DNA of 40,145 nt from a virus, in the IMG/VR virus record IMGVR_UViG_3300021509_000003. The stretch is one strand, 5' to 3'. Both the position numbers and the translations under genes were made by a program. Numbering within the stretch: position 1 is the first letter of the stretch; the number at the start of each line of letters is the position of its first letter. This document shows, one piece after another, positions 1,267 to 40,145 of this stretch. Below the pieces are notes generated by a model. That model had not been told where the DNA came from and did no database searches. It saw nothing but the letters and a program-made list of their open reading frames with translations.

Positions 1267-1284
1267 TTACTCCTCCCTGCCTGC

Positions 1285-1647
1285 CTATTGTATATTATAT
1301 TTTTTTTCATCATAAATAATTTCTTCCTCAACTTGCATTTGCTTTTCAGCTTCTGTTACTGGGATTGCCTCAAGTAAAAACTCAATATCTTTAATAAGTA
1401 ATCCTATACAAAATTCCATAGGTTGTTGTGGGCTGTCAAAACATAATGTCCATAAATTTTCTTTTTTACCGCTTTCTTCATAGGCCTTCATAATTGTTTG
1501 CAATTTTTTATAAAATATTAATTTTTCCTTTCTACCGTGTAGATAAAATGTATATCTTCCTGTGCCTTTTGTAAGAGCATATTCTTCCTCTCCTGTTTCA
1601 GTCCTTACCCGCACCCGCCAATTCTCATTTTGTGCTATAAGTCCCAT
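1285..1647 (-). CDS. Hypothetical protein
   Basis: 120-aa ORF overlapping the upstream gene by 13 nt, suggesting an operon. Confidence 0.4.
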   Translation of the reverse strand: MGLIAQNENWRVRVRTETGEEEYALTKGTGRYTFYLHGRKEKLIFYKKLQTIMKAYEESGKKENLWTLCFDSPQQPMEFCIGLLIKDIEFLLEAIPVTEAEKQMQVEEEIIYDEKKYNIQ

Positions 1648-3675: not shown

Positions 3676-3960
3676 TTATTCTCCTACATAATACATAGTA
3701 AAATCAAACCATTTTTCATTTCTAACATACATTGTTCCTTTTAAAGCATGCTCGTTTATTTTTTCTAAGACATCTCGCACAGGCCAATATTTATAGTGCA
3801 GTTCCATATCTTTAATTTTAAAATCTGCCAAAAATAATTCGCTCCCCCAAGGAAGAAAGTTTTTCCCACTATCTCCTTCTATTTTTTTGGTCAGGATGTG
3901 TGTTTCCCCGATGTAAACTTTCCAATATCCATCAAGTATTTTATTCATTTTATTTGACAA
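3676..3960 (-). CDS. Hypothetical protein
   Basis: 94-aa ORF tightly packed in the same operon. Confidence 0.4.
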   Translation of the reverse strand: MSNKMNKILDGYWKVYIGETHILTKKIEGDSGKNFLPWGSELFLADFKIKDMELHYKYWPVRDVLEKINEHALKGTMYVRNEKWFDFTMYYVGE

Positions 3961-4465
3961 TTTCCTTTTTAATTAACTTACCACCAGCAGCTTGAATTAT
4001 GCAGATAAATATTTCGGGCGTTACCAGCCACGGTTTGATGTGACTCCATCCAAATATCTTTACCAATGGAGCAACACAGCCTTCACTGCAAAAATATTGT
4101 CCTTCTTTTTCCTTTCTCCATTTAGTAAAAAGTCCAAAAGCCGCTATATAATCAAAATATGCTCCTTTATTGGCAAGCCCCTGCATAAAATTATGTATAA
4201 AAACTTGCTGTGCTTCAGAAACTTCCAATTTCCATATTTCATATTTACTTCCTTTAGGGTAGCCTTTTAAAAATGGCCTAATAGCCCATTTTACTTTAAA
4301 AATTTTCCAAATATTTTCTGGCCAACATTCTATGGCATAATCAGGTCCTGCCTGTTCGGCAGGAATTAAATAGGCAATGTGGCTGTATTCACTTTGTGTT
4401 TGATACTCAATTACTTTTGCCAACCAATCATTACCTTTTAAAGCAATATATTTAATTTCAGCCAT
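3950..4465 (-). CDS. Permuted papain-fold cysteine peptidase/amidase (YiiX/C92-like, NlpC/P60 superfamily)
   Basis: His-containing EYSHIAYLIP precedes Cys-containing YFCSEGCV, the permuted order of this family. Contains an in-frame copy of the 16-mer cctgcctgttcggcag. Confidence 0.45.
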   Translation of the reverse strand: MAEIKYIALKGNDWLAKVIEYQTQSEYSHIAYLIPAEQAGPDYAIECWPENIWKIFKVKWAIRPFLKGYPKGSKYEIWKLEVSEAQQVFIHNFMQGLANKGAYFDYIAAFGLFTKWRKEKEGQYFCSEGCVAPLVKIFGWSHIKPWLVTPEIFICIIQAAGGKLIKKEIVK

Positions 4466-4482
4466 TTGAAACCCGCAAAATG

Positions 4483-4519
4483 CCTGCCCGACGGCAGGCG
4501 GGCCTGCCCGCAGACGGGC
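4483..4519 (-). terminator. Two tandem GC-rich hairpins immediately 3' of gene 4519-5271
   Basis: cctgcccgacggcagg (4483-4498, 6-bp stem) and gcccg-caga-cgggc (4506-4519); a short U-tract follows on the minus-strand RNA. Confidence 0.5.
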
Positions 4520-9583: not shown

Positions 9584-9637
9584 CCCGCCTGCCTGTCCCC
9601 GCCTGCCGTCGGGCAGGGGCAGACAGGCCTGCCTGTC
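9584..9637 (-). repeat. Composite GC-rich palindromic element between 9640-9999 and the next gene
   Basis: Contains cctgccgtcgggcagg (9602-9617) nested in a longer imperfect inverted repeat; same architecture as 36704-36752. Confidence 0.6.
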
Positions 9638-10032: not shown

Positions 10033-12390
10033 TTAAGCACCTGGATTCTTATATAAAGCTTTCCAGCTTATGGCTTTTGCGCCTGCTTCAATCCTTACCT
10101 TAAATTCTACGCCATCAACATGCCAGCCTTCCTTTTGTTCAAGAGTAGGGGCCTGTTTCCCATCCAGGAAGAAAATAGTTACAGTCTTTCCTTTTGGTCC
10201 AGCCACATACCAAGCAGTGCCAGCATCATCTAAGCGTCCATCACTAATAACCTTTAAGTTGTATTTACGAAGAATATTAGGTTTGGCCGATACTTTCCCA
10301 CCAGTAGTAGAAAAATCTACATATTGCATGCCAAGCAATTCTTCTACATCCATTCCATCTTCAATACGGACAATTATAAATTGTGGTCTAATGTGAAGTC
10401 TGCGTTTACCGCCAATGTCTTTTTGTTTAAGCATAGCTTTTATGGCTGCTTTAATGGTATCTGTGCTTGGGGCTGCCCCGGCGCCGGCTAAGTTACCATG
10501 ACTAGAATGAAAAAGTGCCACACCATCGCCCATAGTTGGGTTTGTGGTCAAAACTTTATACGCTAAATCGGCTATTTTTCGCCTGGCTGCTGCACCCATT
10601 TCCTTTGGGATTCCAGTTAAGGCATTTAAATCATCATTTATGATTGTTTGTCTTGTGATAGAGAAAAGCTTGCCATAGGTGGCAATTGAATACTTCTCTT
10701 GCTGTTCGCTAACCGTGCCATATTTGTATTCTGCCCCTTCTGGAATTTTATCCAGGTCATCAAATTCACCTGGGCGAACCAGTTTATTTTCTTTAAAATC
10801 GCTAACAGAACCTACACCGCACCATTCACGCCAAGTTTCTGGTTCTTCTTCAAAGCCCTGCATTAAGGCCTTGTTGGCTACATTTTGAAGGATAAGAGGA
10901 AAATCAGAGGAAGTGTGTGTAAAAGCACGTGCTACCATGTCCATTTTGCTTAAGCCTCTACATGGAATATTTGACCTGATAAGACACTCTCTAGCTATTT
11001 CTACCAGAGGACGGTTAGCAAAATCCTCAGCCCCGCTATCTTTAACCTCTTCAGCAGAGACAAAACCAACTCTTAAAAGCAATCCATTCTGAACGGCCCT
11101 ATTAAATTTATCTTTTTCATCCTTACCTGTTACAGGTTCACCAGTTTCCATCCTTCCAACTGGAGTATTTCTTTCAGCCAGTTTTTGAAGAATTAAATCT
11201 TTTGCCCTTTCCACGGTGTATTTTTGCTCAATCATCTCATCCATCAACTTCTCATCAATATTATGCATTTTGCAAAGAGACCTAATCTCCATTACTCGCT
11301 TGCGTTCTGCTTCTTCTCCTTTTTTCCTTGCTTCCTCTATCTCTTTTTGTATTTCTTCAGGATTTTTAATTTCTTCTTTTCTTTTTTCTTCTGCCATTGT
11401 TTTATCCTCCTTTTTATTTTCTTGTCCGACTGTTCGACCCACACCTACCGAGGCATCGGCAGGCACAGGAGTTAAAGAAAACTCAAAAACACTCCATCTT
11501 TGCGCTATGTATGCAGGCCCCTTAAATCCATTCCATTGCTCTTTTTCTTGCAGTTTGAGCCATTTATGAACTTGATATCCAACTGAAACGCCCCGTAATG
11601 TCTGATCTTTAATTTCTTGATATGCTTCCAGGGCCTTTTGTGTAGTGCCAAACTGAATTATGGCACGGCCTTTTTTGTCCTCTTCATCAAGCCAAATTTT
11701 TAAAGGTTTGGCCACTCTTTGATTTGGGTCATGATTTATCAAAATGCTGCCAACTTCTTTTATCGGTTTAAAATTAATAGCGTCTTTTGTATGAAGTAAG
11801 ATTTCTTTTCCATACCAGCGTTCTACTGGCTCTTCTGAGCTAAAGCTCACTTCTACAATGCGGTTTTCATCATCCAGGATGCCACGCATTTCACAAGGAA
11901 AAGTGCGCCGCATTCTGGCGTCAGTAGGAGGGAGGTCTCTTTCATCTTCACTAGTAGGAAGATATGAGTCAGCCTCAAAAGTATCTAGTTGTTTTTCAAC
12001 ATTTTTTTTAAGAGCTGGAGGTTCTTTCCCAAATTTTTCATAATATTTCACGATATGCTTATATACATCTTCTCTATCTTTATCTGGTATGTTTACTCCT
12101 TTCCTAGCCCCATTTAATACCTGCATAGCTAATCTAACGCCATGCCAAACAGCTTGTAATTCATCATTAATTACATCAGCAAATTTTAATTTATAACCTT
12201 GAAATTCTTGCTCATGTTCTGAATCATACCAAAAAAATGCCTTTCTAAATTTTTTCCAATCGATTTTATCTTTATCACCAGACCCATCGCTACTTGCCCA
12301 CTTCCGCACATTTTTTTCAGCTTCATCATGATGATATGGACGCTCTAAATCCTCACATATAGATAAATTAACAAATGGTGTTACCGGCAT
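10033..12390 (-). CDS. Fused prohead protease (HK97/S78-like) + coiled-coil scaffold + major capsid protein (HK97 fold, Mu gpT-like)
   Basis: Protease motifs INHD, LRGVSVGYQ, FEFSLTPVPADASVG; Glu/Lys-rich coiled coil in the middle; capsid-like motifs ALFHSSHGNL and RLHIRPQFIIV. One uninterrupted 785-aa frame with GGAGG RBS. Confidence 0.7.
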   Translation of the reverse strand: MPVTPFVNLSICEDLERPYHHDEAEKNVRKWASSDGSGDKDKIDWKKFRKAFFWYDSEHEQEFQGYKLKFADVINDELQAVWHGVRLAMQVLNGARKGVNIPDKDREDVYKHIVKYYEKFGKEPPALKKNVEKQLDTFEADSYLPTSEDERDLPPTDARMRRTFPCEMRGILDDENRIVEVSFSSEEPVERWYGKEILLHTKDAINFKPIKEVGSILINHDPNQRVAKPLKIWLDEEDKKGRAIIQFGTTQKALEAYQEIKDQTLRGVSVGYQVHKWLKLQEKEQWNGFKGPAYIAQRWSVFEFSLTPVPADASVGVGRTVGQENKKEDKTMAEEKRKEEIKNPEEIQKEIEEARKKGEEAERKRVMEIRSLCKMHNIDEKLMDEMIEQKYTVERAKDLILQKLAERNTPVGRMETGEPVTGKDEKDKFNRAVQNGLLLRVGFVSAEEVKDSGAEDFANRPLVEIARECLIRSNIPCRGLSKMDMVARAFTHTSSDFPLILQNVANKALMQGFEEEPETWREWCGVGSVSDFKENKLVRPGEFDDLDKIPEGAEYKYGTVSEQQEKYSIATYGKLFSITRQTIINDDLNALTGIPKEMGAAARRKIADLAYKVLTTNPTMGDGVALFHSSHGNLAGAGAAPSTDTIKAAIKAMLKQKDIGGKRRLHIRPQFIIVRIEDGMDVEELLGMQYVDFSTTGGKVSAKPNILRKYNLKVISDGRLDDAGTAWYVAGPKGKTVTIFFLDGKQAPTLEQKEGWHVDGVEFKVRIEAGAKAISWKALYKNPGA

Positions 12391-14174
12391 ATTATTCCCT
12401 CCCGCCTGCCTGTTTGCTCAACAGATAAGCCTACCTGCCTGTTCGGCAGATAGGTCTGTCCAATAGGCAAGCTATTTTTAGCCTTTTTTTCTTCTTGAGC
12501 CTTTGCCCAATTTTTGACCCATTGTTTGGCCTGGCTCACTGTCCATTTATCTTTATCAAAAATAAAAGAAATAATTTTTTTACAATCTATACAGTAACGG
12601 GCTTGTATTCCCTTTTTTTCACTGATTGTGATAGTGCGAATTTCATGACCTTTATGTTTTCCCTCTTCTCCAGGAACCGGCACATGAATTTTATTTTCTG
12701 TTACTTCAACTCGAGTTTGAATATCCTGAAATTTTACTTGCATTTGTGATATATCAGTGAGACCTAAATCATTTAAATATTGTTTTTCTTTTGCTCTTTG
12801 ATTGGCTATTTCTTGCCAATCTTTACCTTTAACAGCACATTCATCCGCCAAGCTAGTTAAACCAAGTTGCAGTTCTAACTTCTTTGCCTGAGCTTCTTTC
12901 AATGGGTCAACCCAATCAAAACCTTTGAAAATCCAGCGGTGTTTCAGCCAATTTTCAGGAGCCTTAATAAATCCCTGAACCTGCAAATAGCCGCTCACGA
13001 TGCCATATTTCACAAAGTCTTCCCAGATAGGTTGGAGAAAATATCTTTCAAGTGCTTTCCGGAATGGAAGCATATAATCCCGCAGTTCTAATTCACTATG
13101 CCGAGTAGAAGAATAATTTACATCTGATTTATCACCACTTATTTGTTCATATGAAAGATTTACGCCTCGGCCCATGCCCCGCAAAATAATTTTTACAAAA
13201 TCTGGGAAAGTGCTGCCTGGACGTTTAGGATTGATAACTTCTATTTCTTCTCCTGGGCCAAGATGTTCTACCATTCCAGGAGCTATCTCTATTTCTCTTT
13301 CTTTTGTTTCTGTATTTTGAGTGCTAGTTTGCATGCGTCCCCATATATCAGATGTCTTTATAATTATTCCAAAACAGGCAGCTACTTTGGCAGACATTAG
13401 TTCTGCTTCTAAAAGTTCTGAAAGGTGATAAGCGAGGGGAATAACAGGAGCTAAAAGTGGAATGCCCATCAATTGTCCAGGACGGCGAAAAGGAGAAAAG
13501 TGAATAATATCTTGGGCAGGAATGCGAATGGATTGTTGTTTCAAAATGAATGGATTAGAAATATCTACTTTCCAGAAATGATAAGCAACTATTTTACCTG
13601 TTTGGTCTATCTCAAAACCATTCCAGTTCCAATTATCCTTTTTAGGCGTGCCCATACCACATAAACGGCTATATTCCAGTGCTTCAAGACAAAAAGGGAA
13701 ATCTCTGGATTTATCTATAACTTTGTGGAAAAAAATGCCTCCATCTAAAAATAATTTTAAAATTGCCAGCCGTTCCAGGTCTCCAAAATGAAATTGGTCG
13801 TAATAATCGGCTACTCGTGCCCACTGTTTAAATACATTCTCAGCCTTAGAATTAAATTGTTCGTTATCTGTGAGAGCCTGTGGTGTGCTGCCTCCACCAA
13901 TCATGCGGTTAACAATCAGGTCGATACTGCCACGAACAAAAGATTCATTCCAATATAGATAATTGGCTCTAGCTCTGACTGTTTGCAGGTCTGAGAAATT
14001 ATCATTTGGACCTTCTGCGCTGGTAGTCCAATATGAAGACATGCGGTCTTTAGAAGCAGCTTTTAAATGCCTGCGAACTACTTTTTGAAGATATTCCCGC
14101 TTTGCCTTCCATTTTGGGAAAGCTGCCCAAAAAAAGGCGTCCAGGGCTTTTGAAATGGATTTTAAAATGTTCAT
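12381..14174 (-). CDS. Portal protein, lambda gpB family
   Basis: LSYEQISGDKS... and VKGKDWQEIANQRAKE align with lambda gpB VSYEQLSRNY... and KRGDDYQEIFAQQVRE. Follows a gpW-like gene with ATGA overlap. Confidence 0.85.
   Translation of the reverse strand: MNILKSISKALDAFFWAAFPKWKAKREYLQKVVRRHLKAASKDRMSSYWTTSAEGPNDNFSDLQTVRARANYLYWNESFVRGSIDLIVNRMIGGGSTPQALTDNEQFNSKAENVFKQWARVADYYDQFHFGDLERLAILKLFLDGGIFFHKVIDKSRDFPFCLEALEYSRLCGMGTPKKDNWNWNGFEIDQTGKIVAYHFWKVDISNPFILKQQSIRIPAQDIIHFSPFRRPGQLMGIPLLAPVIPLAYHLSELLEAELMSAKVAACFGIIIKTSDIWGRMQTSTQNTETKEREIEIAPGMVEHLGPGEEIEVINPKRPGSTFPDFVKIILRGMGRGVNLSYEQISGDKSDVNYSSTRHSELELRDYMLPFRKALERYFLQPIWEDFVKYGIVSGYLQVQGFIKAPENWLKHRWIFKGFDWVDPLKEAQAKKLELQLGLTSLADECAVKGKDWQEIANQRAKEKQYLNDLGLTDISQMQVKFQDIQTRVEVTENKIHVPVPGEEGKHKGHEIRTITISEKKGIQARYCIDCKKIISFIFDKDKWTVSQAKQWVKNWAKAQEEKKAKNSLPIGQTYLPNRQVGLSVEQTGRREGIICR
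12401..12460 (-). repeat. GC-rich palindromic element at the portal/capsid junction
   Basis: gcctgcctgtt (12404-12414) and cctgcctgttcggcag (12434-12449); lies in the 3' tail of the portal ORF and upstream of the capsid RBS. Confidence 0.55.
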
Positions 14175-21678: not shown

Positions 21679-22428
21679 TTAATCAGAATATGGCATAATC
21701 CGCCCATATTTTTCACTTCCTTTAAAATCAGTGTTAGGGGACATTTCCTTTTTTTGTTGTTTATCCATTGCCTTCCCGTCTGTCCGACAGGTAATCCCTA
21801 GCGACTTCTTTATTTCCCACACTATCTGTGTCTCTAGCGACCTTAGTTCTTCAGCTGCTTTCTGTTCTAACTTCTCGAATGTCTCCGGGGATACGCTAAA
21901 ATCAACCCAAATCCGATATTTACTTACAGCAGGTCCTTGTTTTCGCTGTATAGGTGGTAATTGGCCCCTCTTTTTCAACCTTTCATAACAAGCAGCGCAA
22001 AGCCCTCTAGCCTTATGGGTCTTTCTCCGCCCACATTCTGCACAAATTACTATTTTCTTACTTTCTGCCATTATCTTCTCCTTTCTCTTATAAACTTCTT
22101 CACAGAGCACTTTCCACTCTGTGCAATCTTCACATACCCCAGGCATAGGAAATATATTAGGGTTTGTCCATTGGCCAATTTCTTTCAGCCTGGGCCTTTT
22201 TCTGTTTGCCTCACATTGTTTAGGACTAATCCGTCCTAAACCATGCGGGCATATGAAAGTATTGGCCTCTAGCCAACGTATCTTATCTTCGTCAACCTGC
22301 CCAACTCCTGAACCACTTCTTGGCGGGTTAGATGTATCTAAATTTCCTTTTATTGGTTGATATCCTTTTTCTCTCTTATATTTCTTTGCTTTCCCCAAAG
22401 GATGCTGCTCTTTACTCAATTCAATCAT
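21679..22428 (-). CDS. Cys-rich hypothetical protein (multiple CxxC pairs)
   Basis: 249-aa ORF with CEDC, CAEC and CAAC pairs; basic. Confidence 0.4.
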   Translation of the reverse strand: MIELSKEQHPLGKAKKYKREKGYQPIKGNLDTSNPPRSGSGVGQVDEDKIRWLEANTFICPHGLGRISPKQCEANRKRPRLKEIGQWTNPNIFPMPGVCEDCTEWKVLCEEVYKRKEKIMAESKKIVICAECGRRKTHKARGLCAACYERLKKRGQLPPIQRKQGPAVSKYRIWVDFSVSPETFEKLEQKAAEELRSLETQIVWEIKKSLGITCRTDGKAMDKQQKKEMSPNTDFKGSEKYGRIMPYSD

Positions 22429-22717: not shown

Positions 22718-22731
22718 TTCTACTTTTTTAG

Positions 22732-22817
22732 CGGAGGGGGCAGGATTTGAACCTGCAGAGTTTTTAAAAACTCGTGGTTCTCAAGACCACTGCTTTAAAC
22801 CACTCGGCCACCCCTCC
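22732..22817 (-). tRNA. tRNA-Ser (anticodon UGA), type II with long variable arm; CCA not encoded
   Basis: Manual fold: acceptor GGAGGGG/CCCCTCC, anticodon stem GTGGT/ACCAC with loop CTTGAGA, variable arm GAGTTTTTAAAAACTC, T-arm GCAGG-TTCAAAT-CCTGC, discriminator G. D-stem is weak (GCC/AGC). Confidence 0.8.
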
Positions 22818-28243: not shown

Positions 28244-28260
28244 CCTGCCCGCAGACAGGC
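28244..28260 (-). terminator. GC-rich palindrome at the end of the tail operon
   Basis: cctgcccgcagacaggc; differs at one position from the 17-mer at 4503-4519; followed by UUU on the minus-strand RNA. Confidence 0.4.
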
Positions 28261-31126: not shown

Positions 31127-32787
31127 TAATCACCATATCCCTCAGCTGTTATTCTTGATAACAATTCTGTGCCTTCTGTTGTCTTCTGCATTGTTATTTC
31201 TACATTCTTTACTCGTAAAGGCGGGAGGGCAGCTAGAATGTCATGTAGATCAATTTCTTTTTCTTCTGCTCCTTCTACTTGTTTATTTACACATACATCC
31301 TCATCAATAGAAAGTTCTACATCCGTTCCAGCTTCTATATCATATTGCCCGGGGCCCTCGATTACTACTTGATATTTACATTTTGTTATCCTTTCAATAA
31401 TAGCTGAGAGGTCAGGACATTCTCCCTCAAATTCAATTTCTTTATCTTCTCCTTCACTCCCTATCTCAATAATTATTGTTTCGGTAGCAATTCTATCTTC
31501 ACTTTGTGCAAAAGGTAATGTGGGAATATTGGGTTGAGGTGACATGATTGTCTTTTCACTATCTGCTCTTTCCTGGGCAATCTGTGAAACTTTTTTCCAT
31601 TCTCCGCCTTCATATTCATATACTACCGTCCAATGCACTTCGCTATTTGATATACGCACTATATCCTCTGACACTTTTGAGTATTCAGTATTGCTTTCAT
31701 ATATAACAGCTTCTTGGGGGGTGTTTGGTAAGGCAATTGATTTTGTTGTTACTTCTTGTTTTAAAAAGTCATCTTCATAGAAATATTGTGTATCTTCTAT
31801 ATTTGTTTGGGTTAATTCCTGATTAGTGTATATTTCTTCTTCTGTATGCTTTTTAACAAGTTTTCGGCTTCTAATGAAATATTTATTAACATCATCAATT
31901 TCAGGGTCATATTCAAAAGTAACAATCTTTCTTTTAACCATCCCAAGCTTCCATTTAAGATTATAATTTGCATCTCTATAATATACTTTCCCATAATGTT
32001 CCTCTTTTTCTTCCAGCGTAAATCCTGCCTCTGATGTTACATATCTTACAATCCTATTTATTATTTTTCCTTTGTTGTTATATCTTTCCTCTACTGTACG
32101 CTTTGTTTCTTGATCAATTGTTCTTGGGCTATAGACATTCACAATTAAATTACGCACTCTAGGCGGTTGACTTTTTGTTATAGAAAGTGATTTCAACCAG
32201 AATCCATCTCCAAACTTTAAATTATATGGGCTTCCTATTTCCTGACAATATAAAACCTTTACAGCATTTTTAGTAATGTACACATCAGCCGTTCTCACAA
32301 TCTGATTGAATGGCGCTAATAATTCTTCAAGACATTTTTTGAACGTGCCCACATAGCTTTTAACAGGATTTATAAGAGATACAACTTTGTAATTAAGCCG
32401 GCTGTCCCAATACAAATCCACTCCTGCCTGTTCGGCAAGCAATTTAGCTACTTGCCCAGATGTAATATCTCCAATCAATACAGGAGATAATCCTTCTGCT
32501 AATCTGCCATCATAACATACATAACACATAACCTCTTTTTGTATTTTTTGTGAAATATTGCTTAAAAATTCAACTGTTGCTACATATTCTTGATTCCGCA
32601 AAGATAAATTTATTCTCTGCCACTTACCATCTAAAGATATAGTTTTTGCAGTCCCAGGAATATTGATTGTAACTTCACATTCTTGAGTTTTTGCATATTT
32701 TATGCACTCCCAGTCAGGAATTTCATATTCCCCTATGGGTGCTATATTTACATCATATCTTATAGACTTACGCTTGACTTCGCTCAT
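31126..32787 (-). CDS. Tail/baseplate structural protein
   Basis: 553-aa ORF in the distal tail block, ATGA-coupled to the upstream gene; contains an in-frame CCTGCC-N5-GGCAaG copy at 32423-32439. Confidence 0.4.
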   Translation of the reverse strand: MSEVKRKSIRYDVNIAPIGEYEIPDWECIKYAKTQECEVTINIPGTAKTISLDGKWQRINLSLRNQEYVATVEFLSNISQKIQKEVMCYVCYDGRLAEGLSPVLIGDITSGQVAKLLAEQAGVDLYWDSRLNYKVVSLINPVKSYVGTFKKCLEELLAPFNQIVRTADVYITKNAVKVLYCQEIGSPYNLKFGDGFWLKSLSITKSQPPRVRNLIVNVYSPRTIDQETKRTVEERYNNKGKIINRIVRYVTSEAGFTLEEKEEHYGKVYYRDANYNLKWKLGMVKRKIVTFEYDPEIDDVNKYFIRSRKLVKKHTEEEIYTNQELTQTNIEDTQYFYEDDFLKQEVTTKSIALPNTPQEAVIYESNTEYSKVSEDIVRISNSEVHWTVVYEYEGGEWKKVSQIAQERADSEKTIMSPQPNIPTLPFAQSEDRIATETIIIEIGSEGEDKEIEFEGECPDLSAIIERITKCKYQVVIEGPGQYDIEAGTDVELSIDEDVCVNKQVEGAEEKEIDLHDILAALPPLRVKNVEITMQKTTEGTELLSRITAEGYGD

Positions 32788-35528
32788 GATAATAATTGCT
32801 CCTGTGGAGTTGGTGTTGGGGGAGGTGGTGAAGGTGGTTCAGGAGGCGGGACAACAGAAGGACAAAGGCTTACTTCAGCCTTTACCCAGTGGTGTTCAAG
32901 TGTAGTTTCTACAGCAAATCCTTCCTTTTCATGCATTAAAATCATATTTTTAAATTTAATGTTTCCATTCTCATCATAATTAAATATATCCTGCCAATAT
33001 TCTGGTTTTTTCTTCCAAACTAAACTTTCAAAAACAGCCGGGTAATAATATTGCCCATATCTAAAACACGGTTTGATATAACCTAACAAATTGCCTTCAT
33101 AATCAAAAAATAATGGTCCTTGATGCTTTTGTATATAGTTAGATTGAGACCCTAGCCATTCTTCATATTGCCAGATAGCTGCATATGGCCGTAATATAAA
33201 AAAGTCCCTCCCGCAATACCATAGACGCCATTCGTTAGAAGTTGGTTTATCCCCTGCCATGATTTGCGTTTCTGAAATCAAACTTAAGAATTCATCATAT
33301 TTCAATAACCACAAGCTTCCCGGATCTTTTCTAGCTAACATATATAAATATTCACCATCTGTGTTTAAAGAAAACACAGATTTATATTCATTTTTCAGCC
33401 AAGTACTTATTGGAATATGATATTGTTCATTTTCCCCGCCTGCCTGTCGGGCAGGGTTCCATATTATTGTCATTCCTGTTACTTCGTCTGTAATTGAGGA
33501 AGCAAAATAAAATATTTTTTCTTTTAGCTTAATTAGTGCAAAAGCAGGGTCATTTAACTCCTGGGCAGGAGGTTTATTTTCAATGTTTATTTCCCAAACA
33601 ACTTCTTTTTTCATTAAATCATAACAAAAAAGCTTCGGATTATCTGAATCTATATCAGCAAAACCAAAAGCTGATGTATTCTCCACAAAACTTATATTTC
33701 CAGGCAAATTAGGGAGGATTCCCCAGTCTGATGTGCTACTTTCTCCTATATATGATATAGCTTCCCATCCATTCCCAATTACAACCCTCAATGGGATTTG
33801 AAAATCTGCTTTCTGTAAGTCAGTTCGGGATTTTACTGCATAATCAACAAATTCAACACTGCATCTAATACCATCTTGAGCCAATGTCGTTGTTGAGGAG
33901 ACTCCACATAACACATTATCTGCAAAAGATAATGTAGTTTTAACACCCTCTAAATTTGGGATAGACAATAAAATTTGTGATATAAGTCCTTGTTTTTCGG
34001 CATTTAAATTAATTTTAGCCTGTATTGCCTTCCAATCTGTAGTATATTTTATGGCAAATGGCTGTTCTATATATCTTTCATAATCCGTTGTAATAGTAGT
34101 AGGGTCAACTAATTCATTATCAACAGCATTATCTTCCCAGGCCTCAGTAATTACAAAAGCCCTTTCTCCTACTTCATAGGCAGGTCTAAAATTACCTATA
34201 TATACTTTATGACAATCATATCTATCCCAACAAAAGCCCGTAAATCTTCGCTGCCCATATTGACTAGAGCTGTAATAATGCCAGATAGTGTGCCCATCTT
34301 CTAAATTAATATTGTAATCTTCAACAAAAAATTCTGTGCAATCTTGACATACAGCACTTCTATACAGCCCAATTCTAATTTCACCGTTTGAATTTCTTTT
34401 AAATAAATCAATACCAATTGCTTCTTCTGTCCCACCAACCTTAAAAGTCTTTCCATCTACAGCTATTTCTTCCCCATCCGTATTAACAGGCATATTTTTG
34501 ACCCATTCAAATTGCTCTTTTTCTTTGTCATACAGAGCAAGTCGAGTTTGGGCAGGATTGCCATATCGCCATGCATATACAATATATTTATCACAAGCAC
34601 TGATATGTATTTCTGAGACATATTCTCCCCATATTTCATCAAGCGGCGGAGAACAAGCCACTCCTTCCTTGTCCTGCATAATATCAAGCGTAATTTTTGA
34701 AGCTACACCATCTTCGGCAAATGCAGCTTTTGAAGCCACACCATCTTCAGCAAAAGAACATTTACAGGGGATTAAAGATTGATAGCAAGGCGCCAGAAAG
34801 GTTGAAGCTTTTATTCCTGCTGTTTTTTCTATATTTGTGTCATCTGTTTTGTATGAATATACCTGCTGGGGCCGATAACTTCCTTTTGCACATATTAATA
34901 CATCTACTCTTTTTTGACTAAGTGCCACATCTACAGCATGATAATCTGCATTATTAAACTTCTCCTCAACAATTGTTTTCTTTAGATTGCCTTCTAAGTC
35001 ATAAATAAAAACAATCCTTCTATTTGGCTCTAAAATTGCGATTTCTTGATTTTCAGGGTCATAATCATATCTTGCCAATCTAGCAAAATATTCAAGCGCT
35101 CCTGAATGATATAACTGTTCTTGATATGTATAATTGGTCCCTTGTTGTTTTTTCCATTTCGTAATCGCCCCAAAATTTGAAAGAGTATAAAGATAATCAT
35201 TTCTATAAAGATAGTCAGGCTCCTTAAGATGGTCACAGTTTGTTTTTGTGCCATTTATACCTGTAGATAAAAGTAGAGCATCACCTTTTACGCCTGATTT
35301 CCCTACATTCAAAAGATAGCAGCTAGATTTTGCTGCCTCAACCAATATATATGTATGTGATTTTACACCAGAATAAACAGAAGGAAGAACAAGTATTGCT
35401 TGTGATTTTACGCCTTGTCTTTTACTTTCACCTTCACTGAGAGTGCAAAAGTATCCTTTATATTTTCTCTTTGTTCTTTCTCCAATGCGAGCCTTTTTAT
35501 TAGCCTGTATTCCTTCATATTCTGCCAT
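32784..35528 (-). CDS. Large tail fibre/host-specificity candidate
   Basis: 914-aa Trp/Tyr-rich ORF, the largest in the tail block; Pro-rich C-terminus, internal 11-aa tandem repeat, and an in-frame palindrome copy at 33439-33455. Confidence 0.45.
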   Translation of the reverse strand: MAEYEGIQANKKARIGERTKRKYKGYFCTLSEGESKRQGVKSQAILVLPSVYSGVKSHTYILVEAAKSSCYLLNVGKSGVKGDALLLSTGINGTKTNCDHLKEPDYLYRNDYLYTLSNFGAITKWKKQQGTNYTYQEQLYHSGALEYFARLARYDYDPENQEIAILEPNRRIVFIYDLEGNLKKTIVEEKFNNADYHAVDVALSQKRVDVLICAKGSYRPQQVYSYKTDDTNIEKTAGIKASTFLAPCYQSLIPCKCSFAEDGVASKAAFAEDGVASKITLDIMQDKEGVACSPPLDEIWGEYVSEIHISACDKYIVYAWRYGNPAQTRLALYDKEKEQFEWVKNMPVNTDGEEIAVDGKTFKVGGTEEAIGIDLFKRNSNGEIRIGLYRSAVCQDCTEFFVEDYNINLEDGHTIWHYYSSSQYGQRRFTGFCWDRYDCHKVYIGNFRPAYEVGERAFVITEAWEDNAVDNELVDPTTITTDYERYIEQPFAIKYTTDWKAIQAKINLNAEKQGLISQILLSIPNLEGVKTTLSFADNVLCGVSSTTTLAQDGIRCSVEFVDYAVKSRTDLQKADFQIPLRVVIGNGWEAISYIGESSTSDWGILPNLPGNISFVENTSAFGFADIDSDNPKLFCYDLMKKEVVWEINIENKPPAQELNDPAFALIKLKEKIFYFASSITDEVTGMTIIWNPARQAGGENEQYHIPISTWLKNEYKSVFSLNTDGEYLYMLARKDPGSLWLLKYDEFLSLISETQIMAGDKPTSNEWRLWYCGRDFFILRPYAAIWQYEEWLGSQSNYIQKHQGPLFFDYEGNLLGYIKPCFRYGQYYYPAVFESLVWKKKPEYWQDIFNYDENGNIKFKNMILMHEKEGFAVETTLEHHWVKAEVSLCPSVVPPPEPPSPPPPTPTPQEQLLS
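34697..34762. repeat. Two tandem 33-bp units inside the 914-aa gene
   Basis: tgaagctacaccatcttcggcaaa... repeated with about 3 mismatches; encodes SKAAFAEDGVA twice. Confidence 0.6.
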
Positions 35529-35689
35529 TTATGCAAATCTCGTTATATATGCCCTATATCCTTTTAAATCTCTCTTTGTTCTTTCTCCAATACGAGCCTT
35601 TTTATTTGCTCGCAACCCATCAAAATTGCGAGCAGCTCTTTTACCACAGCAAGTTTTTTTATCAGCTCTTAATCCTTTATATTCTGCCA

Positions 35690-36701: not shown

Positions 36702-37049
36702 TTACCTGCCTGTTCCCTGCCCGACTGGCAGGCGGGGGCAGACAGGCTTGCCTAGTTTTAAAACATTTTTATATGGAAAATATGAAAGACTATAAAAGAC
36801 CTCAAGCACTTTCTCTCCTTTAAATATGTATCCCCTAACACTATCTCCGAACACTCCTCCAAATTCCACTCCTATTATTTGTCCTTTTCCACCCATACTT
36901 GCTATTGCATGCCTTACAAAATAATAGCTATCTGCATTCGTGATTTTTTTGCCATTTAGTTCAAGCTCAACAATAGGTTTAGAAATATCAGGAAAATAAC
37001 CATCTTTTTCTGTCCATACACTACCATCTATTAACGTTGCTTTCCACAT
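36702..37049 (-). CDS. Hypothetical tail protein
   Basis: 115-aa ORF with AAGGAG RBS; its last 12 codons run through the palindromic element. Confidence 0.4.
   Translation of the reverse strand: MWKATLIDGSVWTEKDGYFPDISKPIVELELNGKKITNADSYYFVRHAIASMGGKGQIIGVEFGGVFGDSVRGYIFKGEKVLEVFYSLSYFPYKNVLKLGKPVCPRLPVGQGTGR
36704..36752 (-). repeat. Composite GC-rich palindromic element (paralogue of 9584-9637)
   Basis: Contains cctgcccgactggcagg (36716-36732); flanks parallel those of 9584-9637. Confidence 0.6.
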
Positions 37050-37062
37050 ATTTTTTCTCCTT

Positions 37063-37105
37063 CCTGCCCCCGACTATCGGCAAGTTATGTTACCCAAAGG
37101 GCAGG
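37063..37105 (-). repeat. GC-rich inverted repeat CCTGCCC...GGGCAGG spanning the stop of 37085-37708
   Basis: cctgccc (37063-37069) and gggcagg (37099-37105), with inner palindrome ccgactatcgg. Confidence 0.5.
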
Positions 37106-37708
37106 GTTATCCAATGTTCCTTCAGCTGGTTTATGCAGCACTATATTGTCTGAGCTACAATTTGCATCAGCTGGTTTCAATGTATTACCACTGCTCCCCG
37201 GTGTTAGCTGTGTCCATACCGGTGTGTCTTCTGTTCCTCCAGCACTAGCGTCATTAAAATACCATGTTAGTGTCGGCGCTGCTCCAGAATAACTATATCT
37301 AACAAATATCACACAATCTAAATCAGCAGGCACGCTGGCATCATAAGGTATTTCCCAACAGAGATTAAATCGAACACTTTCATTTTGTCCTGGTGCAGCA
37401 GCGGATAAATTTACATAACTATCACTTCCCTTTAATCTGTTTGCCGTGGCTCCACCTGCTGTAGCATTTGCAGGCTTCCAATCGGCATTTGAAGGCGGAT
37501 TATCAGTAGTAGCTACAGCGCATAACATAGGTTTATTCCCATTTCCAGCAGTCCCAGTGAAAATTTCATGATTAGTGCTATTAACATTAAAGTCGTCCCA
37601 TGCTTCCAGTTTGGGCGGTTCTGCCAGTGCTTCTGAAAACTGCACCCGAAGAACATTTTGTGCCGTGCTGTTATTTCCTGCTCCTTTTACTTCGCTTGGT
37701 ATTGCCAT
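37085..37708 (-). CDS. Virion structural protein (hypothetical)
   Basis: 207-aa Ala/Gly/Thr/Asn-rich ORF with strong RBS (GGGAGGA); flanked by hairpin elements on both sides. Confidence 0.4.
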   Translation of the reverse strand: MAIPSEVKGAGNNSTAQNVLRVQFSEALAEPPKLEAWDDFNVNSTNHEIFTGTAGNGNKPMLCAVATTDNPPSNADWKPANATAGGATANRLKGSDSYVNLSAAAPGQNESVRFNLCWEIPYDASVPADLDCVIFVRYSYSGAAPTLTWYFNDASAGGTEDTPVWTQLTPGSSGNTLKPADANCSSDNIVLHKPAEGTLDNPALWVT

Positions 37709-37720
37709 TTTAATCCTCCC

Positions 37721-37760
37721 CGCCTGCCTGCCTGCCAGTTGGGCAGGTTAAGCAGGCCTT
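37721..37760 (-). repeat. GC-rich palindrome CCTGCC-agttg-GGCAGG between tail genes
   Basis: cctgccagttgggcagg at 37731-37747, preceded by gcctgcctg. Confidence 0.55.
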
Positions 37761-37762
37761 AG

Positions 37763-38086
37763 CTATTCTAAAATTATCAGGCTTGCCCCACCATCTCTAA
37801 AATCAGTGATAGGGGGTAATTCTTTTATTGACAGACTTAAAAAATATACATTATAATTTCTTCCATAAATATCAGTATATGTTGTTTTTTTTGCTACTTT
37901 GCTTTTTAAAGTATCCATATCACTTTTTTTAATCCTAAAAGATATATCAATTCTTTTTTTTGCTTTCTCTGCATATTGCACAACAGTTGAACCACAAACC
38001 AATTCGTGTTCTGTTGCTTCCCCCTCCAGTCCCTCATCAATTGTCTTTACATCATATATAGACACACCAGCCAATGTAGCAATCAT
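37763..38086 (-). CDS. Hypothetical tail protein
   Basis: 107-aa ORF. Confidence 0.4.
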   Translation of the reverse strand: MIATLAGVSIYDVKTIDEGLEGEATEHELVCGSTVVQYAEKAKKRIDISFRIKKSDMDTLKSKVAKKTTYTDIYGRNYNVYFLSLSIKELPPITDFRDGGASLIILE

Positions 38087-38512
38087 TTACACCTCTGTAA
38101 TAGATACAAAATTTCCGCCTTCCTGTCTGAACCGTGCTATAAAAGGCAATTTTAACCAATCTTCTGAAACTACATCAGTAGATGCATCAGGCTTCAATAT
38201 AGCAGGCCCTTCAATTTTTATAGAAGAGCCTTTCAGGTAAGAAGAAACAAATTTGAATGTGCATTTTTTTGGTTTTTCCATTAAAAAATCCTGCCATCTT
38301 GAAACAGACAGTTTATCAACACTGAATCGCAATCTTACATCCGTCGCCCGAGCCACTTCATCTTCAAGCCTCATTATATATTTACCGTTGATATTAACTG
38401 GTTTTTTTATTTCTTCTGTTTCAAAATCAATTTCTAACACACAATCTACAGCTTCTCCCCAATTTTCTTCATCTATATATATTTCACCTCCACCTAAACA
38501 AAATGCAGCCAC
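38087..38512 (-). CDS. Hypothetical tail protein immediately after tape measure
   Basis: 141-aa ORF; GTG start overlapping the tape measure stop. Confidence 0.4.
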   Translation of the reverse strand: MAAFCLGGGEIYIDEENWGEAVDCVLEIDFETEEIKKPVNINGKYIMRLEDEVARATDVRLRFSVDKLSVSRWQDFLMEKPKKCTFKFVSSYLKGSSIKIEGPAILKPDASTDVVSEDWLKLPFIARFRQEGGNFVSITEV

Positions 38513-40145
38513 TATGTTCCCCCTCTTGCCTGATACAACTCAAATTCTTCTGATAGCCGTTCCATCAAGTTTTGCATCCGCATAGGCATATTTTTTGTGA
38601 TATTGCCAATATGAAGATGGAAATTTTTTTGCATACTTTGTGGGCCTGCCATTGGAAAAGAAAAAGAAGGAGAAAGATGTGGTAAATTGAATCTCAATGT
38701 TAAGTCTTTTACTCCGCTTATAGCAGTTATTTTTTGGCCAACATCACGCAGAGTTTCAGATATAGGCCTTATTGGAGATGCTCTCCCTTTTATATCAATA
38801 ATAACTTCCTGGTTTTTTATTTCTTTTAATTTGGCTTTAAGTTCTTCTATTTTAGCTTTTGCTTTATTTATATCTGCATCTATTTCAGTTAATGTTTTCT
38901 TTTTAGACAATTCATCTAATTGTCCTTTTATATTTGCTAATTTTTCTTCATACTTTTTAAGTTGTGCATTTAAATCCTCTGTATTTTTTTGTTGAGTTGC
39001 AAGATTTTCCTCGGCCTTTGCCTTCATTTCTTCATGTATGCGGAGTAGCAAATTGCCTGCATCCTGCACCCCTCTTTCTGCCTCTTCCTGGTCTTTTAGA
39101 CCCTCAGCTATGTTTTGTGCTTCCTGGGCCAATTTAGCTGCCTTTTCCAGTGAACCCCCATAATATGCCTCAGCTGCTGCGGCCAGTTTCTCTTGATATT
39201 GTCTTTGTCTATCCAGGGCACGTTCTTCTTCAGACATACCTCTTTGGCGAATAGCATGGATTTTATCCTGGGTAGTCTGAACGATATTTTCAATGGCTTC
39301 CTGTTGCTTCTTAACTTCTGCAGCATATTGTTTTTCAAGTTGTATGGCAGCATTATATTTTTGTCTAATGGTTCTAATAAGGCTTTGAATATTTTTTTCT
39401 TCTTCCTTTATTGCCCCCTGACGCAACTTTCCTAACTGATTTAATTCTTGTTGTGCCTGCTTTAATTCATTTGAGGCTTGCACTAGTTGTTTTTGATTTT
39501 GAGTAAGTTTTTGAGCACTCTCAGCCGCTTTTTCAAATGGGTCCTTTTCCATTTCTTCAGCCAAATCCGTCAGCATTTCTTCGCCAAGACGATCAAGTTC
39601 CTCCAATTCTTTCTTGAGACGGCCAATGCCACCCTTAAAGCCTGTCTTCAACCAATTGGCAATTATTTTAAATTTTTCTATCCAGGTAGCAAATTTTATT
39701 CCAAGAGCTTTTACTCCCCAAAACATTGGAGTAATTACATTTTTTAAAAACCAATTAGCAGCACTTGTGACTTCTTGCAGTGCTGGCAATAATGCTTCAC
39801 CTAAACGAGCTTTAAAGATTTTGATTTCCTGATTTAATTTAGCCTGTTGACCTTGAAATTCACCTGCCATTTTGGCTGCATTACCAACCATTGGCTCAGT
39901 TTCTTGCAGAATACCTAAATATTCTGCTTGCCTTTTTTCGGCTAAAGTCAATTGCCCTACGGTCTTGCCTATTTTTTCTGCATATTCCTTCCACATTACT
40001 GAAACATTTTTAGTGACGCCTGCATTGTCCACCAAAATTGAATTTTCATTTTTAAGACCTTCAGTAGCGGACACAATAGCCTCAGCCATAGACAAATGGC
40101 CTTGCCTATTGACTGCTGCTGCATCTTTTAATCTATTTAACAAAG
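38512..40145 (-). CDS. Tail tape measure protein, C-terminal part (continues into 1-587)
   Basis: Long Ala/Gln/Lys/Glu-rich coiled-coil protein, open at the window edge, followed by distal tail genes. Confidence 0.75.
   Translation of the reverse strand, partial: LLNRLKDAAAVNRQGHLSMAEAIVSATEGLKNENSILVDNAGVTKNVSVMWKEYAEKIGKTVGQLTLAEKRQAEYLGILQETEPMVGNAAKMAGEFQGQQAKLNQEIKIFKARLGEALLPALQEVTSAANWFLKNVITPMFWGVKALGIKFATWIEKFKIIANWLKTGFKGGIGRLKKELEELDRLGEEMLTDLAEEMEKDPFEKAAESAQKLTQNQKQLVQASNELKQAQQELNQLGKLRQGAIKEEEKNIQSLIRTIRQKYNAAIQLEKQYAAEVKKQQEAIENIVQTTQDKIHAIRQRGMSEEERALDRQRQYQEKLAAAAEAYYGGSLEKAAKLAQEAQNIAEGLKDQEEAERGVQDAGNLLLRIHEEMKAKAEENLATQQKNTEDLNAQLKKYEEKLANIKGQLDELSKKKTLTEIDADINKAKAKIEELKAKLKEIKNQEVIIDIKGRASPIRPISETLRDVGQKITAISGVKDLTLRFNLPHLSPSFSFPMAGPQSMQKNFHLHIGNITKNMPMRMQNLMERLSEEFELYQARGGT
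40019..40145. repeat. Terminal direct repeat, copy 2; identical to 1-127
   Basis: Exact 127-bp identity with the window start. Confidence 0.95.

Follow-up and report, generated by a model that had tools for sequence, protein, structure and literature searches.

GC-rich palindromes between the late genes of a temperate phage are probably copies of a miniature dispersed repeat of the REP/SDR type

The GC-rich palindromes that recur among the late genes of the virus recorded in IMG/VR as IMGVR_UViG_3300021509_000003 are probably whole or fragmentary copies, some of them nested into compounds, of a miniature non-coding repeat resembling the repetitive extragenic palindromic (REP) elements and small dispersed repeats (SDRs) of bacteria, and not purpose-built phage signals. 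We examined the whole 40,145-nt stretch of DNA (the window) by sequence comparison and computation, following up a sequence-only reading that had noted a family of CCTGCC-N4-5-GGCAGG hairpins at seven loci (4483, 9584, 12401, 28244, 36704, 37063 and 37721). That reading had favoured mRNA processing or stabiliser hairpins, attenuators or protein-binding sites over simple terminators, with a host-derived REP-like or uptake-signal-like origin as a secondary idea. We favour a dispersed, mobile-type repeat because the element is a discrete unit, its identical copies are individually missing from relatives, it is tolerated within open reading frames (ORFs), and it nests in hairpin loops, its contexts being unrelated across phyla.

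The recurrence of these palindromes is real. Exact matches to CCTGCC-N3-6-GGCAGG were found six times in the window (4347, 4483, 9602, 33439, 36716 and 37731) where shuffled sequence gave 0.01, and a census allowing up to one mismatch per arm found 10 units against 0.12 expected. The 8-mer CAGGCAGG matched 11 times, always on the coding (minus) strand, compared with an expectation of 0.69. A tagged hairpin of 20-21 nt, CCCG-CCTGCC-(3-5 nt loop)-GGGCAGG, is the recurrent unit; it is composed of a 4-nt tag and a 6-bp GC stem (CCTGCC/GGCAGG), the arms of which are invariant and the loop variable. Tagged copies lie in both orientations relative to transcription (GGCAGGCGGG occurs five times on the minus strand and twice on the plus strand), and an untagged 17-nt relative, CCTGCC-GAACA-GGCAGG, is present in three copies of a single orientation. 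This GC-rich 20-21-nt unit contains no stop codon in any of the six frames, and its 21-nt form is exactly seven codons long. The larger hairpins are compounds, in which a unit is nested between other arms (for example GCCTGTC...GACAGGC) or stands beside half-units, GGCA repeats or 14-nt repeats.

All seven of the loci cited initially contain GC-rich stem-loops, and the sequence at 4483 (cctgcccgacggcagg) is, as had been proposed, the reverse complement of that at 9602 (cctgccgtcgggcagg), the identity reaching a 20-mer that includes the CGGG/CCCG tag. Among the loci first described as having a 4-5-nt loop, 37063-37105 has a loop of 24 nt, and 28244-28260 is a weak and imperfect member. We also found copies that had been overlooked, namely three within ORFs (4347-4363, 33435-33459 and 32423-32439), a decayed copy (21777-21795) and a half-unit (1276-1285). 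The elements of the window are listed below, with L275 denoting a 27.8-kb Logan contig that is 96-97% identical to the window.

37709..37762, minus strand: intercistronic spacer before the 207-aa gene, with unit CCTGCCCAACTGGCAGG (37747->37731) followed by (GGCA)n and a CGGGG tail leading into the Shine-Dalgarno sequence (SD) GGAGGA; an outer stem, GGCCUGCU/AGGCAGGC, surrounds the unit (fold -25.6 kcal/mol, SD unpaired; identical in L275).
37063..37105, minus strand: long-loop palindrome CCCTGCCC...GGGGGCAGG immediately before the SD of the 115-aa gene, with the upstream 207-aa ORF ending inside it; polymorphic, since L275 has 9 + 1 additional nt that produce a full tagged unit, CCTGTCCGACGGCGGACAGGCGGG, not present in the window.
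36702..36752, minus strand: nested element, with an inner tagged unit CCCGCCTGCCAGTCGGGCAGG (36736->36716) flanked by outer arms GCCTGTCTGCC / GGAACAGGCAGG; ORF 36702-37049 takes its last ~17 codons from this element, and the SD of the 333-aa structural gene adjoins it (fold -29.5 kcal/mol; identical in L275).
33435..33459, minus strand: in-frame intragenic tagged unit CCTGCCCGACAGGCAGGCGGGG in the 914-aa ORF, encoding NPARQAGG; it differs from L275 by 4 substitutions in 23 nt against a background difference of ~3%.
32423..32439, minus strand: member of the untagged subfamily (CTTGCCGAACAGGCAGG), slightly decayed, lying in frame within the 553-aa ORF.
28244..28260, minus strand: imperfect member CCTGTCTGCGGGCAGG followed by TTTGCC, just past the last gene of the tail/lysis block; the most terminator-like copy, though a weak one (-11.4 kcal/mol, z ~0; identical in L275).
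21777..21795, minus strand: decayed intragenic copy (CCCGTCTGTCCGACAGG on the plus strand) in ORF 21679-22428; the mosaic relative L070 has a canonical CCCGCCTGCCTGTCGGGCAGG at the homologous position.
12401..12460, minus strand: compound element at the junction of the portal gene and the protease-capsid gene, made of hairpin CCTATCTGCCGAACAGGCAGGTAGG (12454->12430) and half-unit ACAGGCAGGCGGG, which is joined directly to the SD; the reading frame of the portal gene continues through the element (fold -33.8 kcal/mol, z -3.2).
9584..9637, minus strand: compound element after the 119-aa head gene, in which the 20-nt unit CCTGCCCGACGGCAGGCGGG (9617->9598) sits in the loop of GCCTGTC-TGCC-GACAGGC; the hairpin is followed by the repeat GGCAGGCGGGGA (fold -41.2 kcal/mol).
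4479..4519, minus strand: element after the major tail protein gene; its 20-nt unit, 4483-4502, is the exact reverse complement of 9598-9617, and on the mRNA it is preceded by hairpin GCCCGUCUGCGGGC and followed by CAUUUUG.
4347..4363, minus strand: untagged unit CCTGCCGAACAGGCAGG lying in frame within the 171-aa ORF, where it encodes IPAEQAGP.
1276..1285, minus strand: half-unit GGCAGGCAGG, joined directly to the SD that serves the 104-aa gene starting at 1266; a 4-nt indel lies at its edge relative to L275.

Evidence that these units behave as separate pieces of DNA came from close relatives, for which we compared three contigs and one mosaic relative. In a 5.2-kb global alignment with the contig L001 (98% identical, 114 differing columns), indels longer than 2 nt were confined to the 9584-9637 spacer, where L001 lacks exactly CCTGCCCGACGGCAGGCGGG (9617->9598), with unambiguous edges and no target duplication. 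In the window this unit lies between the loop and the 3' arm of GCCTGTC-TGCC-GACAGGC, and the same hairpin is uninterrupted in L001, which carries a different 27-nt GC-rich insert of its own 14 nt further downstream. The second copy of the same 20-mer, at 4483 and in the opposite orientation, falls within a 24-nt stretch missing from L275, such that each of these twin copies is missing from a different close relative; within IMG/VR, the exact 20-mer was found only in contigs of this phage. Element loci are the least stable sequence of the genome: they make up 2% of the alignment with L275 and hold 5 of its 9 indel runs and 41 of its 53 gap nucleotides (P = 4e-7). The differences from L275 that fall in elements break stem pairs, with no compensatory changes, and the copies at 4347 and 33439 are rearranged and multiply substituted there, respectively. 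The mosaic relative (contigs L070 and L103) has, in addition to the canonical unit at the site homologous to 21777, a compound element of its own before another gene, and distant relatives have no elements at all.

Insertion within a coding sequence was apparent in the 171-aa protein, five homologues of which (40-62% identity) all lack five residues where the window and the 96% relative encode IPAEQ(AGP). At the DNA level, the alignment at 4347-4363 has 15 nt, or five amino acids, more in the window than in the homologues, and the homologous loci lack family members. We also sought homologues of the 914-aa protein to examine the copy at 33439 in this manner, and only one, a 98% relative from contig L275, was found.

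The element extends well beyond this phage. A structured pattern scan of IMG/VR yielded low-GC contigs with many copies, and the commonest unit among the matches listed was the 21-mer CCCGCCTGCCGGACGGGCAGG. A scan of GTDB, represented by one genome per species, for this exact 21-mer gave at least 120 matches, where chance would give well under ten in total and about none in the low-GC loci that account for most of the matches. Among the matches listed were the Bacteroidota isolates Flavivirga, Mucilaginibacter, Flavobacterium, Aequorivita, Flagellimonas and Aureibaculum, together with metagenome-assembled genomes (MAGs) of the candidate phyla radiation (CPR)/Patescibacteria, Nitrospirota, Planctomycetota, Ignavibacteria, Elusimicrobia, Chloroflexota, Proteobacteria and a Bacillota. 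The flanks of CCCGCCTGCCGGACGGGCAGG at 125 bacterial loci were unrelated to one another and compositionally flat right up to the edges of the 21-mer. The edges of the unit are thus defined twice and independently, as the borders of the L001 indel coincide with the borders of conservation at these 125 loci.

The surroundings of these bacterial copies also followed a pattern. At 12 of the 125 loci (1.2 expected), the 21-mer lay in the loop of a hairpin that its flanks form over 6 bp or more, with cases of self-nesting in which one copy sits in the loop of another (L171, L165, L164 and L225), and it interrupted tandem heptamer arrays in phase at 7 of the 125 (0.19 expected). Target-site duplications of 1-5 nt were no more frequent at CCCGCCTGCCGGACGGGCAGG loci than in permutations. 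Copies were present in frame in housekeeping genes, for example in a surface loop of methionyl-tRNA synthetase (MetRS) that is 5-7 residues longer than in solved MetRS structures, and orthologous insertions were common to different species (L141/L216 and L217/L245). One Bacillota MAG contained several differing prophage-like contigs full of the unit, with 13 exact copies on a contig of 18.9 kb and many of them inside long ORFs; these element-rich contigs encode unrelated phage modules. The unit-sized presence and absence in relatives, the in-frame copies within ORFs and the occurrence of the same tagged hairpin in unrelated bacteria and prophages together support the secondary idea of a host-type REP-like repeat. 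The companion idea of an uptake-signal origin appears unlikely, because the motif is common to many phyla and does not belong to one species.

Several bacterial loci had features of separate interest. The heptamer arrays interrupted in phase were GAGTTAT, ATTTTCA, TATTGAA, AATTCGA, GGAAACT and TTTCAAA (L136, L207, L221, L232, L233 and L250), in Bacteroidota and other genomes; the 21-nt length of the element equals three heptamers. In Mucilaginibacter sp. PPCGB 2223 (L193, 4499-5077), the RNase P RNA gene is closely preceded by two exact 21-mers spaced 84 nt apart. A nested double element (..NLPAARLPDGQGRHGG..) also lies in frame in a histidine kinase gene of a Bacteroidales MAG (L164, 961-2376, minus strand), immediately ahead of the conserved GTTFTL motif in the ATPase domain. 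In a Harrisonbacteria MAG (L172, 4553-4680), the 21-nt element splits a tRNA 5' fragment (GCCAATGTAGCTCAGATGGTAGA|GCAACTCC), and a GIY-YIG-like ORF follows immediately; we dropped the interpretation of this locus as an insertion into a tRNA gene, as it is a 5' fragment beside a GIY-YIG ORF in which ARAGORN calls no intact tRNA.

These observations can be accommodated by a model in which the unit would be copied or moved as a single discrete segment, with no target-site duplication and with a preference for the loops of existing hairpins, including its own. The mobilising machinery would act in trans and would not be encoded by the phage. The most plausible candidate is a host transposase of the HUH/Y1 type that acts on single-stranded DNA hairpins, such as the IS200/IS605 family and the REP-associated tyrosine transposases (RAYTs), because a tag joined to a short hairpin is the form of single-stranded substrate that these Y1 enzymes use (PMC3116915, PMC3733652). 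A temperate phage with an integrase and cI/CII-like genes could gain copies while resident in such a host. Copies would then persist only where they are harmless, in the short spacers before SDs in the packed virion block, at the 3' ends of ORFs and in the surface loops of proteins, and their survival in the pre-SD spacers of a packed operon is what purifying selection would be predicted to leave. Once transcribed into late polycistronic mRNA, the stem-loops might incidentally protect or punctuate the message in the manner of E. coli REPs, as a by-product. A secondary RNA role of this type, in stabilising or punctuating late messages, may exist, since elements are enriched in the structural block and show strand bias. 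Within the virion-gene block, 5 of the 11 spacers contain an element compared with 1 of 16 elsewhere (Fisher P = 0.03), though the other spacers are longer.

Some results weigh against a mobile repeat. Precise loss of units, or gene conversion from one copy to another, might in principle account for presence and absence in place of insertion. The concentration in the structural block and the 11:0 strand bias of CAGGCAGG would also be expected from a selected RNA function, and the loci at 37721, 36704 and 28244 are perfectly conserved in L275. The tags that define REPs, GTAG and CGTC, are absent from the units. No recurrent neighbour such as a RAYT gene emerged when the ORFs from 120 bacterial loci were clustered, which returned only housekeeping families, and RAYT was not among the best 25 of 55 Pfam families obtained from 90 ORFs on element-rich contigs.

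A broader proposal, which we put forward tentatively and rate at a little under an even chance, is that the ~21-nt tagged hairpins CCCG-CCTGCC-loop-GGGCAGG might constitute a previously undescribed cross-phylum family that is among the smallest mobile DNA units known. With comparable reserve, this proposal would extend to insertion without duplication into hairpin loops, heptamer arrays and, in frame, genes. Searches made with the element's sequence strings in open-access text returned nothing relevant, and keyword searches of the same literature returned only papers on REPs, SDRs and heptamer repeats. Rfam held no family for the elements and matched only tRNA and RNase P RNA, none of these matches lying over an element. 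The element was absent from cultured phages, and plasmids gave only chance-level matches in GC-rich replicons. If the proposal is correct, letter-for-letter identity across phyla would imply either a widespread mobilising activity or frequent transfer between phyla, and temperate phages like this one would be victims and possible vehicles of the element.

The main rival explanation, and one that is compatible with a mobile repeat, is that these are late-operon RNA elements selected by the phage (barriers to 3' exonucleases, RNase III-type sites or 5' stabilisers) that set the relative amounts of capsid, tail and distal-tail proteins, with the likeness to a dispersed repeat resulting from co-option. 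RNA-relevant sequences here are the reverse complements of the strings first noted, because the genes are on the minus strand, and on that strand six of the seven initially cited loci fold at -20 to -41 kcal/mol, with 28244 reaching only -11.4 kcal/mol. The G-rich 3' end of the element leads directly into an SD at six of the seven intergenic loci, and the predicted folds leave that SD unpaired. Such stable stems directly before accessible SDs, the placement of elements around the capsid and major-tail genes, their enrichment in the structural block, the 11:0 strand bias, the invariance of three loci in L275 and the capacity of E. coli REPs to stabilise upstream mRNA (PMC3733652) are all consistent with selected RNA elements. 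However, z-scores relative to shuffled sequences were modest at the six loci (-1.2 to -3.2) and nil at 28244, tagged units occur in both orientations and within ORFs, turnover between relatives is rapid and breaks pairs without compensation, and filled and empty alleles follow the major-tail and head genes in otherwise near-identical phages. Distant relatives lack elements at the same junctions, among them that between portal and protease. We therefore regard selected RNA elements as a distinctly less likely origin than mobile repeats. Two specific versions of an RNA function were tried and set aside, as minimum free energy folds leave the SDs unpaired, which disfavours SD sequestration as a translational switch, and the mRNA-strand loops in the window lack the GGA expected of CsrA-type sites. 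We also set aside a miniature inverted-repeat transposable element (70-300 nt, with terminal inverted repeats and target-site duplication), the unit being 20-21 nt long with no duplication.

Intrinsic (Rho-independent) terminators or attenuators that partition late transcription are very unlikely, and the initial judgement that most of the hairpins lack a clean U-tract and look unlike simple terminators held up. The hairpin at 12454-12430 passed a simple pattern scan, CAUUUUG follows the 4483 unit and UUUGCC follows the 28244 copy at the end of the late block; yet only the first of these passed, the frequency of terminator-like sites did not exceed that in shuffles, most elements lead into the purines of an SD and not into a U-tract, and copies occur within ORFs and in both orientations. 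The expectation that each hairpin would lie between an upstream stop codon and a downstream ribosome-binding site failed at two loci, where the elements are read through by the portal ORF (12381-14174) and by ORF 36702-37049, and ORF 37085-37708 terminates within an element. Double-stranded DNA sites for a phage or host regulator, or host DNA uptake or Chi-like signals, would explain invariant CCTGCC/GGCAGG arms around a variable loop, as if sequence outweighed structure, and would accommodate the strand bias. This is highly improbable given that bacteria of many phyla, whose regulators are unrelated, carry the same unit, that copies lie within housekeeping genes and heptamer arrays, and that none falls in a promoter or operator region of the window; signals for uptake, like Chi, are moreover specific to a lineage. 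An assembly or sequencing artefact might be suspected, as 21 nt is a common minimum k-mer size and the window itself has a 127-nt assembly overlap. We give this almost no credence, since independent assemblies (IMG/VR contigs L001-L003 and L012, and Logan contig L275) contain the same loci, the sister 21-mer CCCGCCTGCCGGACGGGCAGG is present in isolate genomes from different pipelines, variants of other lengths occur, and the orthologous insertions lie in different species.

The window is a complete, circularly assembled genome of ~40,018 bp, as positions 1-127 are an exact terminal direct repeat of 40019-40145; the tape-measure ORF (38512-40143) runs on across the circular junction. Its GC content is ~36%, and almost every gene is on the minus strand. 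Judging from its predicted genes, it is a temperate tailed phage, with a gpA-type large terminase, a tyrosine integrase, a cI-like helix-turn-helix protein, a CII-like protein and DUF5131, and with virion genes for a portal, a fused protease-major capsid protein, a major tail protein and a tape measure. The fused gene (10033-12390, minus strand) is a single 785-aa ORF that joins a head-maturation protease to the major capsid protein (phrog_4523, E = 2e-165). The early/regulatory region also contains a tRNA gene, called by both ARAGORN and Rfam:

22731-22817, minus strand: tRNA-Ser (anticodon TGA).

Three perfect 12/12 sigma-70 consensus promoters (TTGACA-17/18-TATAAT) were present. Those at 28138-28110 and 24024-23996, both on the minus strand, lie in long AT-rich spacers that edge the lysogeny/early region, and that at 37828-37857 on the plus strand is antisense within a tail gene. 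Off-diagonal BLAST matches to L275 imply a ~53-nt direct repeat (35452-35504 and 35557-35609, 105 nt apart) that spans the start of the 914-aa gene (32784-35528), one copy falling in its first codons and the other lying in the 161-nt upstream spacer; gene calls for L275 place a 53-aa ORF at this site. The 171-aa gene that follows the major tail gene (3950-4465, minus strand) contains conserved Cys/His motifs (FCSEGC) and matches no family in Pfam or PHROG, and its homologues in other metagenomic contigs (L253 and L254) have very different neighbourhoods, behaviour suggestive of moron-type cargo. L275 lacks or replaces two blocks of the window (7836-5441 and 2669-1650), including polysaccharide-deacetylase-like and metallophosphoesterase genes, which amounts to modular mosaicism inside the structural region. 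A megablast of 10 kb of the window against the cultured phages of INPHARED gave no match, a look-up of lysogens through the integrase returned only contigs shorter than 2 kb, and the only matches from a scan of metagenomes for closer relatives were distant capsid homologues, which lack the elements. Among ~40 ORFs of the window that were scanned (about a dozen small ORFs lay outside the scan), there was no transposase, RAYT, reverse transcriptase or HNH nuclease.

Terminators or processing sites are the usual reading of GC-rich hairpins that separate late genes, and the hairpins described here behave as invasive repeats. They rewrite the ends of ORFs and insert peptides into structural proteins, with consequences for the annotation of metagenomic phages. 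Their size of 20-21 nt, their clean insertion or absence without target duplication, and their identity in unrelated phyla are hard to reconcile with known REP/RAYT biology. The naturally filled and empty alleles (the window versus L001 at 9598-9617, and versus L275 at 4483-4502) provide a testable system for how so small an element moves and whether it affects the fate of the mRNA that contains it.

Among known systems, several phages have intergenic repeats of their own, including the start-associated and extended start-associated sequences (SAS/ESAS) of cluster K mycobacteriophages, the PeSL stem-loops of T4 and the RNase III sites of T7. The likeness lies in repeated motifs or stem-loops just before start codons or between phage genes. 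Those repeats, however, are lineage-confined, conserved in position and not known from host housekeeping genes, whereas the present elements vary and occur in bacteria. Yeast mitochondrial GC clusters are short GC-rich palindromes of 30-60 nt that are polymorphic between strains and for which AG-flanked target duplications are reported, and the mechanism of their movement is unknown. Like them, our elements are GC-rich palindromes scattered across an AT-rich genome, in spacers and sometimes in genes; unlike them, they are neither organellar and eukaryotic nor 30-60 nt long, they lack target duplications, and their sequence is unrelated. Rickettsia palindromic elements, in the account given in PMC3733652, are likewise palindromic repeats tolerated in frame in genes that still seem functional, and differ in being ~100-150 nt long, CGTC-tagged and confined to one lineage, against our 20-21-nt, CCCG-tagged, cross-phylum unit.

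The SDRs of the Nostocaceae are closer in size, and were presented as 'very small mobile repeated elements' by Elhai et al. 2008, as cited in PMC4390886 and PMC5861425. Likened by description and not by SDR sequences, our unit resembles them as a 20-21-nt hairpin that inserts without duplication, interrupts heptamer arrays and nests. SDRs are reportedly hairpin units of 21-27 nt that insert precisely with no obvious duplication, their mobility having been argued from differences between related strains, and they are said to be embedded in tandem heptamer repeats and other repeats, their mechanism being unknown. In our family, the heptamer context was seen in bacterial loci only, and the window has no heptamer arrays. 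In addition, SDRs are described in PMC5861425 only from the Nostocaceae, whereas the present family occurs in Bacteroidota, CPR, Nitrospirota and Planctomycetota, in Bacillota prophages and in a phage.

Finally, REP elements, including the bacterial interspersed mosaic elements (BIMEs) that they compose and the REP doublets known as REPINs, are mobilised by RAYT transposases of the IS200/IS605 Y1 type (PMC3733652, PMC3116915). Our unit departs from them in its tag, which is CCCG (CGGG on the other strand) in place of GTAG or CGTC (PMC3733652), in lying at the very short end of the size range and being phage-borne, and in its identity across phyla, REP families being specific to a species or genus. 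REPs are also associated with RAYTs, whereas none was found in the window ORFs scanned or near the loci examined. The nested or inverted compounds at 9584, 36704 and 4483 recall REPIN doublets, although the L001 indel is a single unit and not a doublet. In other respects the correspondence is close. Each is a short palindrome (20-40 nt in REPs, 20-21 nt here) whose stem bears a conserved 4-nt tag at one foot. They are dispersed and mostly extragenic, occasionally in frame within genes, and often paired or nested into larger hairpins. Both insert into other small palindromes, are transcribed within mRNAs, vary in presence between close strains, and reach copy numbers far above chance, which here amounted to 10 against 0.12 expected in the window and 13 on a contig of 18.9 kb.

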